Positions 2,745 through 12,001 of a stretch of DNA of 21,130 nucleotides are shown in pieces. The notes under the pieces are model-generated. The model did not search any database. It was given only the letters and a program-made list of their open reading frames with translations, and was not told where the DNA came from. Position 1 is the first letter of the stretch, and every line of letters begins with the position of its first letter. The DNA lies in contig JBHLLF010000044.1 of NCBI GenBank assembly GCA_048885865.1, positions 1 through 21,130 on the forward strand, read 5' to 3'. The translations under genes and the position numbers were made by a program. The stretch is from Candidatus Hermodarchaeota archaeon. Its GTDB lineage: Archaea > Asgardarchaeota > Thorarchaeia > Thorarchaeales > Thorarchaeaceae.

Positions 2745-3203
2745 CTAGAAATCACTCTCAGCAAGATAGCTCCAACCAGATTTAACCATCTTTTGCTTAT
2801 CTTTTTGCCATGAGTCGTATCCTTCATCACGGATCTTCCGCAATGATGGCAATGCCCATGATTGAGTCTTTAGCTCTGAACAAGTTTCCATCCGAATACA
2901 GTCAAGGCATGTCCTGTAGCCTCTATCAATCGAGCACGCTCTTACTTTGCAGTCTAGGATTCCTCCCCCCTTTCGACAACCTTCGCAGCCTTCAAAATCA
3001 TCCTTTGCTGCATCAAGCAACCTCTCAAACCTTTCAAGATGCACTTGGGCTGGCTTCTCTTCACCGATCTCTGCTGGACGGGATTTGGATGCAGTAATCG
3101 CGCTCCGAAGATCATCAATACCATGGGCGGCTTTACTTTGGTGCATATCACAGCCTGGACAATAGAGACCGCAGTAGGAAGTCAGGTCATAAGAGTCAGG
3201 CAT
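2745..3203 (-). CDS. DUF3795-like cysteine-rich (putative metal-binding) protein
   Basis: The pattern YCGLYCPGC ... CEGCR ... CKVRAC ... TCLDC ... C matches the DUF3795 Cys layout. ATG 3203 follows an AGGTGA RBS; GTG 3212 is an alternative start. Confidence 0.8.
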   Translation of the reverse strand: MPDSYDLTSYCGLYCPGCDMHQSKAAHGIDDLRSAITASKSRPAEIGEEKPAQVHLERFERLLDAAKDDFEGCEGCRKGGGILDCKVRACSIDRGYRTCLDCIRMETCSELKTQSWALPSLRKIRDEGYDSWQKDKQKMVKSGWSYLAESDF

Positions 3204-3353
3204 GCTACTCACCTAGGCAGTATATAGACGTCAGTTCAAGATAAACCTTCTAGACTCATGTGTTCCGACCGTTGCCTTCTTAGCACAGTATTATTAACAG
3301 CTTCATCCAACACAACCTGGACATTTCAGGCAGGTATTCGGAGGCTTGTTGCC

Positions 3354-4061
3354 ATGACGATAGCGATCGTCAAGTTTCCTGGGACAAATAGCGAGAAAGA
3401 CGTTCTTCGAGCGCTTTCATTGATTCCAGGTGCAAATCCATTTGTAGCCTCAAGCCACAAAGGACCAGAAGTACTACAAAAGGCAGATGCTATAGTGATC
3501 CCAAGCGGAGCCTCAATTGATGAGTATGTCAGTGTAGGGGCTGAGAAGTGGATTGACAATGTAGAAGACACAATTCAGGACATTGCAGAATCAGGCAAGT
3601 CAATCTTGGGAATTGGGAATGGCGTGCAGATGTTGACAAGATTTGGTTTGCTTCCAGGTCAGCTTCGTCTGAATCAGAATGGGAGATTCATCTGTAGATG
3701 GGTATATCTTAGGGTGTGTGAGGCTCCCACTATTTTCACTGAAGGTCTTGAAGGACTAGTGATTCGAATTCCAGTTGCACACTCTCACGGGAGATTCCAT
3801 TTCAAGAAGAAGGAGCTCGAGAGAATGAATGAAACCGGAGGAGTCGTGTTCAGATACTGCAATCAAGAGGGAGAAATTGTACCTGAAGCCAATCCAAATG
3901 GATCAATAGAAAATATTGCAGGAGTGAAAAATGACAGCGGAAATGTATTAGGAATTATCCCTCACCCGGAGAGGGCAACTAGAGATGAACTAACATCTTG
4001 TGACGGTCTGATTCTTCTAGAGAGCTTTGTTCGGTCTATAAAGGCAAGGAGTCCTTCATGA
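3354..4061 (+). CDS. purQ: PurQ-like (FGAM synthase glutaminase subunit) homolog lacking the catalytic Cys
   Basis: FPGTN, GLLPG, FIC, IPVAH, VVFRY, NPNGS, IAGV, GNVLG and PHPERA are all PurQ motifs. The nucleophile motif reads GIGNG rather than GICNG. ATG 3354 follows GGAGG, and the stop overlaps the purL-like ATG (ATGA). Confidence 0.88.
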   Translation: MTIAIVKFPGTNSEKDVLRALSLIPGANPFVASSHKGPEVLQKADAIVIPSGASIDEYVSVGAEKWIDNVEDTIQDIAESGKSILGIGNGVQMLTRFGLLPGQLRLNQNGRFICRWVYLRVCEAPTIFTEGLEGLVIRIPVAHSHGRFHFKKKELERMNETGGVVFRYCNQEGEIVPEANPNGSIENIAGVKNDSGNVLGIIPHPERATRDELTSCDGLILLESFVRSIKARSPS

Positions 4062-6205
4062 TATCCAAGCAGGAAAGGGAGCAGCTAGCGTTGGCATTAG
4101 GACGAGAGCCAACAGAAACCGAATTGGAAGTAGTTTCAATCCTTTGGTCCGAACGGAGGAGTTACAAAAGCAGCAAGCGTTGGTTCAAGGAGTTCAAGAC
4201 GGAGGGTGACAATGTCGTATTGGGGCTGGGCAAAGGAGCAGGAATTGTCAACCTCGGAGATGACGTGTTTCTTGGTGTTGCAATGGAATCCAATAATCAT
4301 CCGACACAGGCAAATCCGTATATTGGATCTGCATTAGGAATTGCTGGCGTCATCAGTGATGTGATTGCACATGGCTGCAAGCCAATTGCGCTATTGAATT
4401 GTCTTAGATTTGGAGAACCTAGCATCCTGGAGAATGCCAATGCGCTAAAAGAAGCGGTAAGAGGAATTTCACAATTCGCTAATAACATAGGGATCCCTAT
4501 GGTCGGTGGGGACACTGAGTTTGATGAATCATTTGGGAATAACAGTGTTTTGAATGTGGTCTGTGTTGGAATAACGAGTCCAAGCAGTATGGTTATGAGT
4601 CGAGCTTCAACCCCTGGCCATCATCTTGTGCTTTTTGGCGCAAATACTGGAAGAGACCGCCTTATTGATTATAATGGATCATCAGGCAAAGCAGGAGCAG
4701 CAGTTCCGGGGAATCCTCTCGCTGAACGAATAGTCATTGATTCACTTGATCAGCTTGTTGATGGGAAGCTTCTGGTCGGGCTTGAGGATGTTGGTGGAGG
4801 CGGATTGGTACTTGCAGGAGCGAAACTTGCTGCAAGAGGGGATACCGGCGTTGATCTTCATGCTGACAGGGTCCCAATCGATGATGAAGATATGAGCACA
4901 GTCGAAATCATCACATCCGATTCGCAGAATCGAATGCTTGCTGTGGTTGCTCCTGAGAGTTTGGAGAGAGTCCTATCAATACTTGGCTCCTACGATACAC
5001 CTCACGCGGTAATCGGTCAGGTGACTGACAAAGGACTCTACAATGTTTATCACCATGGGGAATTGAAAGCAAGCCTACCAGCAGTTCTATTGACTAGCGG
5101 ATTCCCCGAACCAGATAGATTTGAGGAGTATCTTCCCGAGAGGACTGCATCTATCAGTTGGTTAGTAAAGCCAGAGGACCAAGCACAGATGCTGCTATTG
5201 ATGCTTTCCTCACCAAACATTGCTGACAGGTCGTGGATTTATAGTCAGTTCGACCAGCACATTCAAGCGAACACAATTGTTGACATAGGAGACAACTCGG
5301 GCGTTATCGAACTTCCTAAGGGGAAGAGAATTGCATTAACCACATCATCAAACTCCTTCTGGAGCTCTTTACACCCCCAGATTGGAGCGGCGAATTCTGC
5401 TACTCTTGCCCTAAGGAATCTGGTAGCATCAGGTGCAAAGCCCATCCTAATAGCGGATTGCATAAACTTTGGTAATCCCGAACGTCCTGAATCGTATGCG
5501 GAATTTGTTGAAGCAGTAAAGGGCATAGGTAGCTTCTCGCACGATTTTGACATTCCAGTTATAACTGGTGGAGTTTCTCCCTACAACGAAAGGGTGATAG
5601 ACGGCAAGCCCAAGAGGATTCATCTTACTCCTCAGATAATGATGGCAGGGGTCCTATTGCAAGGACATCTTCCTACCAGGAGAAGACTTTGTACGCCGTG
5701 GGCCAACATCTTTCTTGTTGGCGAAACACATCGAGAATTGAATGGATCTGAACTACAACGAATCCAACTGGGGAAGGTTCAGGGACTTCCACCCGGATAT
5801 CAGCCCGCTGCCGAGAAGTCCGCTATGGAAGCCGTGCTAGCTGCATTTGCAAAAGGGCTTGTGCGATCATGCAACGATATTGGACGAGGCGGCTTGGCTA
5901 TCGGTTTGATGAAGATGGCTCTTCGAGGAGATTTGGGATTCAGACTCGATCTCAGGGACGTTCCTGGATCCGCGAAAGGACTAACTGAGATTCTCTATTC
6001 AGAAACATCCGCTAGATATCTTGTTGAAGTGACTGAAACAAATCAGGATGAATTCTTACGCACAGTTGAGAAGCATGGAGTTGCAGCGACTGAGTTGGGT
6101 TTGACCTTGAATGAACCCAAAGCCAATTTCGGCTCTTTTAGCATCAATTTGAAAGAAGCCAGAGAAGCATACATGAGTGGGATAGCGAGGATTCTGGACA
6201 AGTAA
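4058..6205 (+). CDS. purL: PurL-like (small-type FGAM synthase synthetase subunit) homolog with a degenerate active site
   Basis: 715 aa with the two-repeat PurM-like layout: LGREP, WSExxSYKSS, ESxNHP, LRFG, VGG, TGRD, DxGGGGL, SDSQNRM, WIYSQFD, GAKP, DCINFGNPE, VSPYNE, GGL and SET. The catalytic His motifs are altered (SERRS, SNNHP). Confidence 0.88.
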   Translation: MISKQEREQLALALGREPTETELEVVSILWSERRSYKSSKRWFKEFKTEGDNVVLGLGKGAGIVNLGDDVFLGVAMESNNHPTQANPYIGSALGIAGVISDVIAHGCKPIALLNCLRFGEPSILENANALKEAVRGISQFANNIGIPMVGGDTEFDESFGNNSVLNVVCVGITSPSSMVMSRASTPGHHLVLFGANTGRDRLIDYNGSSGKAGAAVPGNPLAERIVIDSLDQLVDGKLLVGLEDVGGGGLVLAGAKLAARGDTGVDLHADRVPIDDEDMSTVEIITSDSQNRMLAVVAPESLERVLSILGSYDTPHAVIGQVTDKGLYNVYHHGELKASLPAVLLTSGFPEPDRFEEYLPERTASISWLVKPEDQAQMLLLMLSSPNIADRSWIYSQFDQHIQANTIVDIGDNSGVIELPKGKRIALTTSSNSFWSSLHPQIGAANSATLALRNLVASGAKPILIADCINFGNPERPESYAEFVEAVKGIGSFSHDFDIPVITGGVSPYNERVIDGKPKRIHLTPQIMMAGVLLQGHLPTRRRLCTPWANIFLVGETHRELNGSELQRIQLGKVQGLPPGYQPAAEKSAMEAVLAAFAKGLVRSCNDIGRGGLAIGLMKMALRGDLGFRLDLRDVPGSAKGLTEILYSETSARYLVEVTETNQDEFLRTVEKHGVAATELGLTLNEPKANFGSFSINLKEAREAYMSGIARILDK

Positions 6206-6284: not shown

Positions 6285-7433
6285 ATGAGCGGGAAGTTAG
6301 TTTATCCATATACAGATGCGCTTCTGCAATACGAATTTAGAGATGACCACCCTTTGAAGCCTGATCGGTTATCCTTGACTTACGAATTGTCGAAGGAGCT
6401 TGGTCTACTCAAACATGTCGACCAAATTGAACCGTCAATGCCCAAAAGAGAAGACCTTGAAACATTTCACAGTCCCCAATACATCGACGCAGTGATTGAG
6501 AGCGGTGACACCTTGACATCAATGCCGAGCTATGGACTTGGAACGATGGATAATCCTGTCTTCCCGAATTTGTATGATGCTGCAGCGAGATACGTTGGAG
6601 CCACTCTGGATGCAATGAAAGCAATGATAAATGGGGCGCCTAAGGCATTCGTCATCTCCGGAGGACTACATCATGCGCATGAAAGCATGGCGTCAGGCTT
6701 CTGCGTCTTTAACGATGTTGTAATTGCGATTAAGCATTTTCAGAAGACAAAGCCAGCGAAGGTCTTATACCTGGACATTGACGCTCACCATGGCGATGGA
6801 GTACAAAACGCCTTTTTTGGGTCGAAGGATGTATTGACAATCTCAGTTCACCAACACGGGCAGACGCTGTTTCCTGGCACAGGATTCACTCATGAGAATG
6901 GAAGCGGGGAAGGAGTAGGCTATTCAGTTAATATCCCCGTGTTGCCCGGAGCAGGAAGTGAAGAACTAATCCAAACATTCGACGAGGTTGTTGTTCCACT
7001 TTTTGAAGCATTTCAGCCAAATCTCCTGGTCACGCAACTAGGAGTGGATGGCCACTTTTTGGATCCACTGGCGCAGCTTAGCTACTCCACCAAGGGCTAC
7101 GAGCATGTCCTCAGGAATTTGAAAAAGATGGCAGAGAAGACTTGCAGTGATGGATGGCTCGCTGTTGGAGGGGGCGGATATCATCCTGTCAATGTCGCTC
7201 GCCTCTGGTCATTGTTCCTATCGGTCATATTAGACAAGAAGATACCTTCAGAGATGCCAGAATCATTCATACAACTCTGCCATGAAAAGGGATATGCAAA
7301 ATTCCCCATGAATATGAGAGACGAAGATAATGTAGTCCAGATCTATCTTCCAATAGAGCAAATCAGACTTGATCTTGATAGAGTTCTCCGACAGGTCAGA
7401 GAGAAAGTGTTTCCTTGGCATGGTCTCTCGTGA
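6285..7433 (+). CDS. acuC: Zn-dependent deacetylase, AcuC / class I histone deacetylase family
   Basis: HPLKPDR, GGLHHA, SGFCVFND, YLDIDAHHGDGVQ, LFPGTG, QLGVD...DPLA and GGGGY are present, so the catalytic and Zn-binding residues look intact. Confidence 0.92.
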   Translation: MSGKLVYPYTDALLQYEFRDDHPLKPDRLSLTYELSKELGLLKHVDQIEPSMPKREDLETFHSPQYIDAVIESGDTLTSMPSYGLGTMDNPVFPNLYDAAARYVGATLDAMKAMINGAPKAFVISGGLHHAHESMASGFCVFNDVVIAIKHFQKTKPAKVLYLDIDAHHGDGVQNAFFGSKDVLTISVHQHGQTLFPGTGFTHENGSGEGVGYSVNIPVLPGAGSEELIQTFDEVVVPLFEAFQPNLLVTQLGVDGHFLDPLAQLSYSTKGYEHVLRNLKKMAEKTCSDGWLAVGGGGYHPVNVARLWSLFLSVILDKKIPSEMPESFIQLCHEKGYAKFPMNMRDEDNVVQIYLPIEQIRLDLDRVLRQVREKVFPWHGLS

Positions 7434-9295: not shown

Positions 9296-9529
9296 TTACT
9301 CAGCAAAGGCTGGAGGTTTCAGACGAATATGGTCTTCAACCCGGTCAACAGCTCGTAGAGGTATGACTTCCCATGTATGCGGTCTTTGGTCGTTCTCAGA
9401 TTTCTCAATAATCACATGCGGACCAGTATCGTCATCATACCATACCTGCTTCACACGACCTAAAGGAAAGCCTCTGAAGTCACGCACGACCTTTCCTTTT
9501 AGCAACCATTTCACTCTGTCACTCTTCAT
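9296..9529 (-). CDS. Small PRC-barrel domain protein
   Basis: LKGKVVRDFRGFPLGRVKQVWYD ... VIPLRAVDRVEDHIRL fits the PRC-barrel consensus (L.GK.V....G..LG.V.DV..D ... IP...V..V.D.I.L). It is 77 aa from ATG 9529. Confidence 0.75.
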   Translation of the reverse strand: MKSDRVKWLLKGKVVRDFRGFPLGRVKQVWYDDDTGPHVIIEKSENDQRPHTWEVIPLRAVDRVEDHIRLKPPAFAE

Positions 9530-9620
9530 CGTTCTCAAGGTGACATAGAAGCAAGTCATTGAAGAGCGTGTGTACAACCTAGACAATATTCACAAATGTA
9601 TTGAGAGCTGTATTAGTCCC

Positions 9621-10205
9621 TTACTTACTCTGGTCCTCCTCTTCCTCATATCCCCAATCTACAATCATTTCATCACCTGTTGGGAGAAAAGAGCCTGTGA
9701 GGAACCAGCCAGTGCCACCCATAATGAGTCCAAGGATGTTCAGCGAACCTCCTGTGACTATAAACAGGCGTGAGTCAGTCATCTGGGTAAATCCGACATC
9801 CATGAGTGCTGTTTCATTGGCTCTATCCAACGTGATTGTATATTGACCAGGAATCACATCTATCATCTGTCGCGATACGAACGTTGGTGGGTTCGAGCCC
9901 GGAACCACATCATCTGATGTAAGAGTGAAATTCACAAGATAGTCTTGGGACGATTCATCATGCCTGACTGTAAAGTCAATCTCAAGCGCTGAAATGTTAG
10001 ATGAAGCGCGTAAATCAAGTGAGATTTCAAGCTCTGGATAGTATCCAGATGCATCCCGAATCGTGAAGGGCATGCGTTCGCCGACTGATGCTCTATAGAT
10101 AACAATGTTGTACGGAGCGCTCAGTACAATTATCCCCCCTAGTATGATGACAAATGCACCGCCAAAATATAGGAAAGCCTTCTTTGAGCGCCACGGATTG
10201 CCCAT
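9621..10205 (-). CDS. Hypothetical membrane protein (N- and C-terminal TM helices around a beta-rich extracytoplasmic domain)
   Basis: 194 aa with hydrophobic segments at about residues 10-30 and 147-172, a Ser/Thr/Asn-rich middle with NxS/T sequons (NIS, NFT, NET), and an acidic tail. Confidence 0.78.
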   Translation of the reverse strand: MGNPWRSKKAFLYFGGAFVIILGGIIVLSAPYNIVIYRASVGERMPFTIRDASGYYPELEISLDLRASSNISALEIDFTVRHDESSQDYLVNFTLTSDDVVPGSNPPTFVSRQMIDVIPGQYTITLDRANETALMDVGFTQMTDSRLFIVTGGSLNILGLIMGGTGWFLTGSFLPTGDEMIVDWGYEEEEDQSK

Positions 10206-10324
10206 AATTAATCGACCGAGTGAAAAGGCATTACTATCAGATATAGGTGTAACGAACAGGACATTGCGCTATTCTGCAAACTGCCAAACTTAAAGAGATA
10301 GCACTGGATTATGGAATAGAGAGT

Positions 10325-12001
10325 ATGACCGAGTTTCTGAAAATCGCTGAAACACTAGACAAGATTGCTGCTGTTTCTAGCCGGAATGCCAAGCTTGACT
10401 TAGTCGCTACACTTCTTAGAGAAGTGGATACTCTCGAAGTCAGGACTTCGGCGCTGTTTCTGGGTGGCCGCATCTTCCCGGAAAGTGATGATCGAGTTCT
10501 CAATGTATCATGGAGCGGGCTTAAGTCAGCACTTAAGCAAGTCATTGACTTCTCTATGGAAGACTTGAGTGAATCATATCAGGGTGATACTGGTGATGCT
10601 GTTGCGGCCTTACTTGAATCAGGAAAATTCACAGTGCAGACAGGTCTCTTCTCAACCCCGCTATCAATAAAATCTCTCGAAGATAACTTCAGTGTCATTG
10701 CTGGACTTCAGGGGCCTGGTTCAAAGAAGAAAAAGGAGGCAATCCTAGCACAGATATTGAGGGAAGCAGCTCCAATAGAAGCGAAATATATTACAGCCCT
10801 CGTGTTGAGCGACATGCGCATTGGACTGTCTGAGGGTCTATTGGCGGAGGGAATTGCCCGAGCTTTCAATATAGAACCAAAGCTAGTGAGAAGAGCGTGG
10901 AGTTTCACTGGAGATTTGGGTCAAGTTGCAGAGATAGCCGCAGTGGGAGGAGCGTCTGCGCTAGATGAAATCAAGGTGACTCTTTTCAGGCCTGTGAAGC
11001 CTATGCTTGCCAGTCCTGCTGATTCTGTTGATGAGGTGTTTGGGATAGGTTCCTCGTATGCTTTCGAGTTCAAGCTAGATGGAGCTAGAGTTCAGATTCA
11101 CAAACAGGGGGATAAAGTCACCATCTATTCCCGTAGGCTACAGAATGTAACTGAAAGCCTACCGGATATTGTAGAGATTGTCAGGAGTAAAGTAGCGGCA
11201 GATCTGGCAATCTTGGACGGAGAGGTGGTAGCCGTTAGTGACAAAGGACGGCCGTTTCCATTTCAGGTCGTAATGAAGCGTTTTGGAAGGACGCGTGAAG
11301 TCGAGAAGACAAAGGATGAAGTCCAATTGCATCTATATCTCTTTGACCTTCTATTGCTTGAAACCAACCAGCATATAGACTCCAGATACTCGGAGAGAAG
11401 AGAATTGCTGGAATCCATAGCACCTCAGGAAATTCTCATAGAGAGCTACTACACTGCGAGCGAAGATGAAGCTGAGAGTTACTTCGATAGGAGCAAGACT
11501 CTCGGACATGAAGGACTGATAGCAAAACAAGTAGATTCAACCTACGTGCCGGGAACGAGGGGCAAGAACTGGTTCAAGATTAAACACTCGTTGGACACTA
11601 TGGACTTGGTCATCATTGCTGCAGAGTGGGGACACGGAAGAAGGAAGAATTGGCTTTCCGATTACCACCTTGCAGTAAGAGACCCTGATACAGATTCCTA
11701 TGTCATGATTGGCAAAACATACAAGGGTCTGACTGACGTCGAGTTTGAAGAGATGACTAGCAAGCTCAAATCAATCTCTACTGGCAAGAAGGGACATGTC
11801 GTGACAGTGAAGCCTGAGATTGTGGTCGAGGTCCTAGCAGACGAAATACAGGAGAGCCCAAACTACAAATCGGGCATGGCCTTAAGGTTCGCAAGAATAG
11901 TGAATATTCGCTATGACAAGTCGCCGACTGATGCTATGACTCTGGACCAGTTAAAGACGATTTATTCAGGTCAGTTCAAGTACAAGGCAAGCCAGACATG
12001 A
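10325..12001 (+). CDS. lig: ATP-dependent DNA ligase (archaeal type)
   Basis: Motif I EFKLDGARVQ (adenylated Lys), III ILDGEVV, IIIa YLFDLL, IV EGLIAK, V WFKIK and VI LRFAR..IRYDK, plus the N-terminal DNA-binding domain. 558 aa. Confidence 0.97.
   Translation: MTEFLKIAETLDKIAAVSSRNAKLDLVATLLREVDTLEVRTSALFLGGRIFPESDDRVLNVSWSGLKSALKQVIDFSMEDLSESYQGDTGDAVAALLESGKFTVQTGLFSTPLSIKSLEDNFSVIAGLQGPGSKKKKEAILAQILREAAPIEAKYITALVLSDMRIGLSEGLLAEGIARAFNIEPKLVRRAWSFTGDLGQVAEIAAVGGASALDEIKVTLFRPVKPMLASPADSVDEVFGIGSSYAFEFKLDGARVQIHKQGDKVTIYSRRLQNVTESLPDIVEIVRSKVAADLAILDGEVVAVSDKGRPFPFQVVMKRFGRTREVEKTKDEVQLHLYLFDLLLLETNQHIDSRYSERRELLESIAPQEILIESYYTASEDEAESYFDRSKTLGHEGLIAKQVDSTYVPGTRGKNWFKIKHSLDTMDLVIIAAEWGHGRRKNWLSDYHLAVRDPDTDSYVMIGKTYKGLTDVEFEEMTSKLKSISTGKKGHVVTVKPEIVVEVLADEIQESPNYKSGMALRFARIVNIRYDKSPTDAMTLDQLKTIYSGQFKYKASQT

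Follow-up and report, generated by a model that had tools for sequence, protein, structure and literature searches.

The stretch of DNA analysed here, which we call the window, is 21,130 nucleotides long (positions 1 to 21,130 of contig JBHLLF010000044.1, GenBank assembly GCA_048885865.1) and comes from an Asgard archaeon whose close relatives are labelled Candidatus Thorarchaeota or Promethearchaeota metagenome-assembled genomes (MAGs). It encodes two adjacent genes, purQ and purL, whose products are homologous to two of the three subunits of the small-type PurL-PurQ-PurS synthase that makes formylglycinamidine ribonucleotide (FGAM) from formylglycinamide ribonucleotide (FGAR). Both proteins lack catalytic residues of this enzyme, the rest of the purine pathway was not found in the genus, and the two genes nevertheless evolve under purifying selection. 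On these comparisons we consider it probable that the genes encode a selected PurQ-PurL heterodimer that does not make FGAM and would most likely serve a nucleotide-dependent role without catalysis. Below, the proteins of the clade to which the window's copies belong are called the variant PurQ and the variant PurL.

Replacement of catalytic residues in both proteins

His32 and His72 of Thermotoga maritima PurL are essential catalytic residues. We read the state of these and other sites from alignments to solved structures of Thermus thermophilus (3VIU) and T. maritima (1VK3/2HS0 and 3D54). At the His32 site, the His-Cys pair of 85 canonical relatives is replaced by Arg33-Arg34 in 16 of 16 clade proteins, and the histidine that the same 85 relatives carry at the His72 site is replaced by Asn79, again in all 16. 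In the FGAM synthases of Salmonella (H296) and human (H311), the histidine equivalent to His72 gates the end of the ammonia channel (PMC7124931, PMC13013826). The loop that covers FGAR (the C-loop) is shortened in the variant PurL and carries the changes G201R, Q216V, I217P and D219N; in FGAM synthase the glutamine of this loop touches the iminophosphate intermediate (PMC13013826). Several replacements in the variant PurL raise the positive charge (H33R, C34R, G201R and E256K).

The nucleophile of PurQ has also been lost. Glycine stands at this site in 9 of 9 clade sequences, canonical relatives have cysteine (TGT), and intermediate lineages have serine (AGY). In the purine-making archaea studied by Brown et al. 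2011, by comparison, the cysteine and the glutamate of PurQ are fully conserved (PMC3261824). The glutamine-binding and oxyanion loop is degenerate in the window's subclade only (6 of the 9 clade sequences), and the other subclade retains GGLSYGDY. The remainder of the former triad is kept in the window and varies within the clade, with His changed to Gln in one genome (G010) and Pro to Leu in another (G011). The initial annotation had described altered catalytic motifs in both proteins, and the alignments to solved structures bear this out. Assembly error as the source of the substitutions was ruled out: the key codons are covered by contigs of three other sediment runs with zero listed differences, one contig of 1706 bases spans all three sites, and identical residues occur in more than 15 independent assemblies.

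Distribution of the variant pair

The MAG to which the window belongs, as contig 44, is labelled G000; it comprises 3.58 Mb in 117 contigs and is rated 87% complete. Among 40 relatives, every PurL-bearing genome has exactly one copy, and purQ always lies directly upstream of it. Wherever the locus is present in the window's genus, it encodes Arg33-Arg34, Asn79 and Gly88, even where protein identity drops to 60% and also in a single-contig genome of 2.58 Mb (G004); the exception is the degenerate copy of G016, to which we return below. The canonical His, His and Cys occur in six other genera of the family, and the variant PurL is 54% identical to canonical Thorarchaeota PurL. In a large protein collection, the double arginine and the asparagine occur together in 17 proteins, all from the Thorarchaeota group of the window, and those with a named source are all annotated as PurL or AIR-synthase-related. 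These proteins form one monophyletic clade with a support of 100, so that the substitutions and the purQ-purL linkage do characterize a separate clade, a check that the initial annotation had proposed. The tree comes from a thinned FastTree run with Shimodaira-Hasegawa-like supports, in which the placement of the long branches P0104, P0105 and P0107 is uncertain. Four genomes of the genus gave no purL match, but the data do not support a loss of the pair in them: three lack the neighbouring histone-deacetylase (HDAC)-family gene as well and the contig of the fourth starts inside that gene, which indicates that the locus is unassembled.

Loss of the purine pathway around the pair

In canonical Thorarchaeota the pur genes form a single ten-gene block in the order purN-purF-purP-purP-purC::purS-purQ-purL-purE::purM-purD-guaA (G019, locus L067, G019:C6:116000-135900; G024, locus L068, G024:C4:276000-294000). 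This operon includes two tandem purP genes and two fusions, PurC::PurS (321 amino acids) and PurE::PurM (482 amino acids), and its slot is flanked on one side by a type-2 isopentenyl diphosphate (IPP) isomerase gene and a gene for a 179-amino-acid protein, and on the other side by the HDAC-family gene. In the window's genus only purQ-purL is left in the same slot. Judged by gene order, the variant pair is the sole apparent survivor of the ancestral ten-gene operon, the rest of which has been deleted in place.

A tblastn search of the whole 3.58-Mb assembly, with all ten proteins of a relative's pur operon as queries, matched purQ and purL only, which extends to the entire assembly the initial annotation's statement that neither purS nor any other pur gene lies anywhere in the window. 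Searches for purS and for purM were negative in all 17 genomes of the genus, and both genes are present in nearly all purL-bearing relatives. No match above cut-off was obtained for purF, purD, purC, purA, purB or guaA in four genomes of the genus (G000, G004, G011 and G015), and all six were found in the control genome G019. A second purS/purQ/purL set was not found in the window's genome, nor a second purL in any of the genus's 16 other genomes, and we therefore reject the earlier suggestion that the pair is a regulator working with a canonical PurLQS set encoded elsewhere. Because these pathway genes were not found in the genus, the supply of FGAR, the use of FGAM, PurS and a canonical partner copy all seem to be lacking, and the genus appears to be a complete de novo purine auxotroph, although its genomes measure 2.6-4 Mb. 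Continued synthesis of FGAM by the pair is, on this evidence, very unlikely, because the nucleophile and the two catalytic or gating histidines are lost, the FGAR-covering C-loop is degenerate, and PurS, the supplier of FGAR and the user of FGAM are missing.

Two further observations concern these genomes. Without purA, purB and guaA as well, the genus would depend on an external supply of adenine as well as guanine compounds. The single-contig genome is rated only 77% complete, which implies that marker-based completeness probably underestimates this lineage and that the window's MAG, at 87%, may be near complete.

Related lineages retain intermediate states of the locus. Two of them (L064 and L066) have purC::purS-purQ-purL, with serine at the cysteine site of PurQ, asparagine or serine at the His32 site of PurL, and histidine or arginine at the His72 site. 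A third (L065) has purQ-purL only, with serine in PurQ and arginine at both histidine sites of PurL. In L064 and L066 a gene for a leucine-rich-repeat protein of 558-627 amino acids (L064:10332-12008; L066:5649-7532) lies directly downstream of purL, in the place of purE::purM-purD-guaA. Across the sister lineages the His32 site is occupied by R, N, S or Q, the His72 site by N, R, Y or H, and the Cys site by S, G or A. The nucleophile codons can be arranged in a series, TGT (Cys), AGY (Ser), GGN (Gly) and, in G016, GCT (Ala), in which a single base step separates each codon from its predecessor. The tree agrees with this series: the serine-bearing P0104 and the alanine-bearing G016 type adjoin the glycine clade with supports of 89-90.

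Selection on the pair and location of the constraint

Within the window's subclade, at synonymous divergence (dS) of 0.2-1.7, pairwise ratios of nonsynonymous to synonymous divergence (dN/dS) are 0.07-0.12 for purL and 0.07-0.2 for purQ. These ratios resemble those of neighbouring genes, for which we obtained 0.03-0.10 (HDAC-family gene), 0.03-0.08 (IPP isomerase) and 0.2-0.5 (0.23-0.48; a gene of the DUF3795 family). The ratio stays below 0.22 in every region of the variant PurL, the former catalytic half included, and there are zero stops in at least 16 full-length clade proteins. The divergence within the clade, down to 60% identity, all accumulated after the catalytic residues had been replaced. 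The pair is thus not a recent pseudogene: its relatives in other genera are canonical, yet the divergence of the clade post-dates the loss and has accumulated at low dN/dS. The earlier proposal that purifying selection on a new role fits better than decay is upheld by these values. Relative to their neighbours, the variant proteins evolve about twice as fast as canonical copies (60% identity versus 80% for the IPP isomerase, with 69% versus 68% in canonical pairs). As far as such ratios can tell, the constraint on the pair is changed but real.

The changes are concentrated in one half of PurL. At 29 positions the clade has replaced a residue whose conservation in the 85 canonical relatives is at least 95%. 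Nearly all of these positions fall within residues 33-291, the catalytic half, and only two of the replacements, Y398F and L490I, belong to the C-terminal half. The C-loop, which at 91% identity is the most conserved region between canonical clades, is the least conserved between the two variant subclades (45%). In the C-terminal half of PurL, conservation within the clade equals that in canonical proteins. The frame of the nucleotide pocket is also invariant in 15 of 15 clade proteins (W30 S31 E32, S35 Y36 K37 S38, E77 S78, N80 H81 P82, D101, D244 and G246-G249). The variant PurL also has a signature of the DX4GAXP type defined for the PurM superfamily (PMC13013826), here D101-VIAH-G106-C-K-P109, and the acids E77 and D244, likely metal ligands, are among the invariant residues. 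This pattern suggests that FGAR handling and catalysis were lost and that the nucleotide pocket was probably kept. We also looked for a newly conserved surface patch on the variant PurL and dropped this candidate: the 37 positions that do not vary in the clade, and that differ or vary in canonical relatives, are dispersed along the sequence.

The predicted PurQ-PurL complex

A model of the variant PurL with the variant PurQ and without PurS, built from our own alignments, reached an interface score (ipSAE) of 0.89, compared with 0.01 for the best of three controls; of 80 solved complexes, 58 reach the ipSAE mark used, as do 2 of 110 mismatched pairs. Separate runs share at least 94% of contacts, and the predicted local distance difference test score of the partner is at least 89. 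Modelling the two proteins without PurS had been suggested in the initial annotation, and the result passes the controls. The predicted interface core (PurL 396-409; PurQ 9-16, 112, 140-142 and 204-207) is invariant in the clade and matches the canonical proteins, with Y398F as the sole fixed departure from the canonical state in the PurL segment S396-D409.

Features of the locus and neighboring genes

The open reading frames of purQ (235 amino acids) and purL (715 amino acids) contain no internal stops and are coupled by an ATGA overlap, exactly as first described; coordinates are collected in Table 1. The purQ frame opens at an ATG at 3258 (3258 to 4061), yet the likely start is ATG 3354. 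We prefer the latter because a GGAGG motif precedes it and the M or V starts of all relatives align there.

Table 1. Coordinates of the purQ-purL pair, its altered sites and the adjoining genes in the window
Feature	Position	Strand	Basis or remark
DUF3795 gene, upstream edge	2745..3212	-	occupies the slot of purN-purF-purP-purP-purC::purS in canonical relatives
GGAGG ribosome-binding-like motif	3340..3344	+	9 nt upstream of purQ ATG 3354
purQ, PurQ homologue without glutaminase nucleophile	3354..4061	+	TIGR01737; alignment to 3D54 chain D
Degenerate glutamine-binding/oxyanion loop, residues 50-58	3501..3527	+	PSGASIDEY for PGGFSYGDY; PurQ alignments
Gly88 codon GGG at catalytic Cys site (T. 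maritima PurQ Cys86)	3615..3617	+	GICNGFQ to GIGNGVQ; PurQ alignments
His204-Pro-Glu206, rest of former PurQ triad	3963..3971	+	PHPER kept in the window; alignment
ATGA overlap (purL ATG 4058-4060, purQ TGA 4059-4061)	4058..4061	+	reading-frame coordinates
purL, small-type PurL homologue without catalytic histidines	4058..6205	+	TIGR01736; two AIRS/AIRS_C domain pairs (Pfam)
Arg33-Arg34 codons, canonical His-Cys (Arg33 = T. maritima His32)	4154..4159	+	WSEHC to WSERR; PurL alignments
Asn79 codon, canonical His (T. maritima His72, Salmonella His296, human His311)	4292..4294	+	ESHNHPS to ESNNHPT; PurL alignments
PurL C-loop, remodelled and shortened, residues 191-225	4628..4732	+	TGRDG to TGRDR, VQIGDP to AVPGNP
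S396-D409 (SQFDQHIQ.T..D), core of predicted PurQ-docking surface	5243..5284	+	10 of 14 positions invariant in 15 clade sequences
Histone-deacetylase (HDAC)-family gene, downstream edge	6285..7433	+	comes after guaA in canonical relatives

The variant PurQ scores 228.2 bits against TIGR01737, above the cut-off of 177.8, and 207.4 bits against NF002957, below the cut-off of 212. The variant PurL scores 612.3 bits against TIGR01736, above the cut-off of 525.75, and Pfam matches AIRS and AIRS_C in two stretches each. A PADLOC search gave no match for PurQ, PurL or three neighbouring genes, and thus no sign that they belong to a defence system. The DUF3795 gene, which changes much faster than the genes around it, is missing at the same position in canonical genomes. 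A functional tie of the pair to the HDAC-family gene or the DUF3795 gene was considered and dropped. The HDAC-family gene follows guaA in canonical relatives and adjoins the 179-amino-acid gene where the pair is lost; because it keeps its slot in canonical and pair-less genera alike, its adjacency to purQ-purL is best read as inherited synteny.

Possible roles of the pair

The reading we favor is that the two products still form a heterodimer, that the former ATP pocket of the variant PurL continues to bind a nucleotide, and that the complex would act non-catalytically, as a nucleotide-binding sensor, a regulator or a scaffold. Nucleotide binding seems plausible because the frame around the lost histidines has not changed, nor have the acids that probably bind Mg. 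Any specific new chemistry at the dead sites seems doubtful because sister lineages differ in the residues that they carry there. A role of this kind would suit a cell that relies wholly on salvaged purines.

Several points weigh against this reading. The fully conserved pocket frame and the purifying selection on the N-terminal half of PurL fit new catalysis equally well. The model of the complex may have passed its controls through memory of the solved structure 3D54, and in that case it would show likeness, not binding. All genomes but the single-contig one are MAGs, and the absences reported here amount to repeated non-detection. One lineage of the genus (G016; L062, C115, 3324-5415, minus strand) has a far more degenerate copy: its PurL reads WSEQASFK and RAYNQPT, has D101N and has also lost E77, its PurQ reads GVAHGFQ and PYPER, and its purL is split into reading frames of 572 and 129 amino acids that overlap by 17 nt. 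A 709-amino-acid protein of the G016 type (P0105) exists in another assembly, and the split may be either an assembly error or real decay. Finally, the pur operon including purQ-purL has been wholly deleted in two related genera, represented by G018 (96% complete; L076, G018:C38, ~9408-11149) and G020 (93%; L075, G020:C6, ~9384-11146), in which the 179-amino-acid gene lies 50-75 bp from the HDAC-family gene. Because these two genera deleted it, the pair is dispensable for some purine-auxotrophic Thorarchaeota.

A rival explanation with an appreciable but clearly smaller chance of being correct is that the variant PurL is a new enzyme, an ATP-using catalyst of the PurM superfamily that acts on a different and probably more anionic substrate, with the variant PurQ as a structural partner only. 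The invariant pocket frame and likely metal-binding acids and the constraint on the N-terminal half would be expected of such an enzyme, as would the fixation in both subclades of R33, R34, N79, A96, S100, H105, R224 and K256, some of which add positive charge. However, the former catalytic loop has become the least conserved region, conservation at the replaced sites does not exceed the average (about 45% invariant, versus 41% overall), and the differences between sister lineages at key positions resemble relaxed rather than redirected constraint. There is also no new partner gene or pathway context, the neighbours being explained by inherited synteny. We therefore favor the sensing or scaffolding role over a new enzymatic one.

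It is distinctly improbable that the pair is a functionless relic, the last remnant of the operon and merely unbroken so far. The series of decaying loci that ends in full deletion in two genera, the split and fast-evolving copy in G016 and the roughly doubled rate relative to neighbours are what a relic would produce. A relic would not be expected to show dN/dS of about 0.1 at dS of up to 1.7, all of it on divergence after the loss, nor intact reading frames in at least 16 full-length proteins with identities down to 60%, nor an invariant interface core. The last alternative, that the pair is still an FGAM synthase which uses ammonia and substitute residues and feeds an unrecognised, non-homologous purine pathway, is hardly credible: both proteins exceed NCBIfam equivalog cut-offs and are publicly annotated as PurL and PurQ, but searches of four genomes, including the single-contig one, found none of the other pathway enzymes, PurS is absent, and both histidines are replaced, as are the Gln and Asp with which the C-loop contacts the intermediate.

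Comparison with known systems

The pair shares with the PurL-PurQ-PurS FGAM synthase (3D54, 2HS4 and 3VIU) its descent, the AIRS/AIRS_C domain pairs, the coupling of purQ and purL, the pocket frame and the PurQ-docking motif. Unlike that enzyme, it has Gly for Cys in PurQ, Arg and Asn for His32 and His72 in PurL, and a shortened C-loop without its Gln, Gly and Asp, and it lacks PurS and the pathway. By descent the two proteins are PurL and PurQ, but they fail the catalytic criteria, and an annotation as FGAM synthase is not appropriate.

The closest parallel in kind is found in herpesviruses, whose vFGARAT/vGAT tegument proteins (the ORF75 family) are homologous to FGAM synthase but without catalytic residues, and have a non-metabolic role (PMC7605207). 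Like the Thorarchaeota pair, they derive from FGAM synthase, have lost catalytic residues and have been retained for another role. They differ in being viral, single-chain, large-type proteins captured from a host, which target host immunity, partly by recruiting the active cellular FGAM synthase (PFAS). The Thorarchaeota pair is cellular, two-subunit and small-type, and its cells have no active FGAM synthase to recruit. The likeness is one of kind and not of membership, since the variant PurL scores 31.8 bits against the vFGARAT model TIGR01739, whose cut-off is 716.1. Besides the herpesvirus vFGARAT/vGAT proteins, we found no published pseudoenzymes of FGAM synthase in the literature. In archaea, Memar_1841 of Methanoculleus marisnigri is a truncated extra PurQ-like protein without the catalytic triad, which Brown et al. 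2011 read as gene decay (PMC3261824). It resembles the variant PurQ as an archaeal PurQ homologue without the triad. However, it is about 150 residues short and stands beside an intact PurQ and a working pathway, whereas the Thorarchaeota pair is full length, a sole copy and under selection.

A broader conjecture, which we regard as rather unlikely, is that the PurL-PurQ core has an old role independent of catalysis, for example as a nucleotide-dependent sensor or scaffold, that is retained upon loss of the pathway or capture of the gene. Such a role would link the Thorarchaeota pair to the herpesvirus vFGARATs, and in Asgard archaea it could foreshadow the scaffolding by PFAS in the eukaryotic purinosome.

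Implications

If the favored reading is correct, the pair would be a cellular, two-subunit pseudoenzyme of FGAM synthase that has outlasted the loss of purine synthesis in an Asgard genus, where the published cases are herpesviral only. Related genomes preserve a series from the full operon through purC::purS-purQ-purL and purQ-purL to nothing, and this series amounts to a natural experiment on the passage from enzyme to pseudoenzyme. The variant PurQ and PurL are soluble proteins of a well-studied fold, which makes binding and structure tests straightforward. For the window's genus, the public annotation of the two genes as "PurL" and "PurQ" overstates its metabolism, and the apparent purine auxotrophy bears on the syntrophic or scavenging lifestyle that has been proposed for Asgard archaea.

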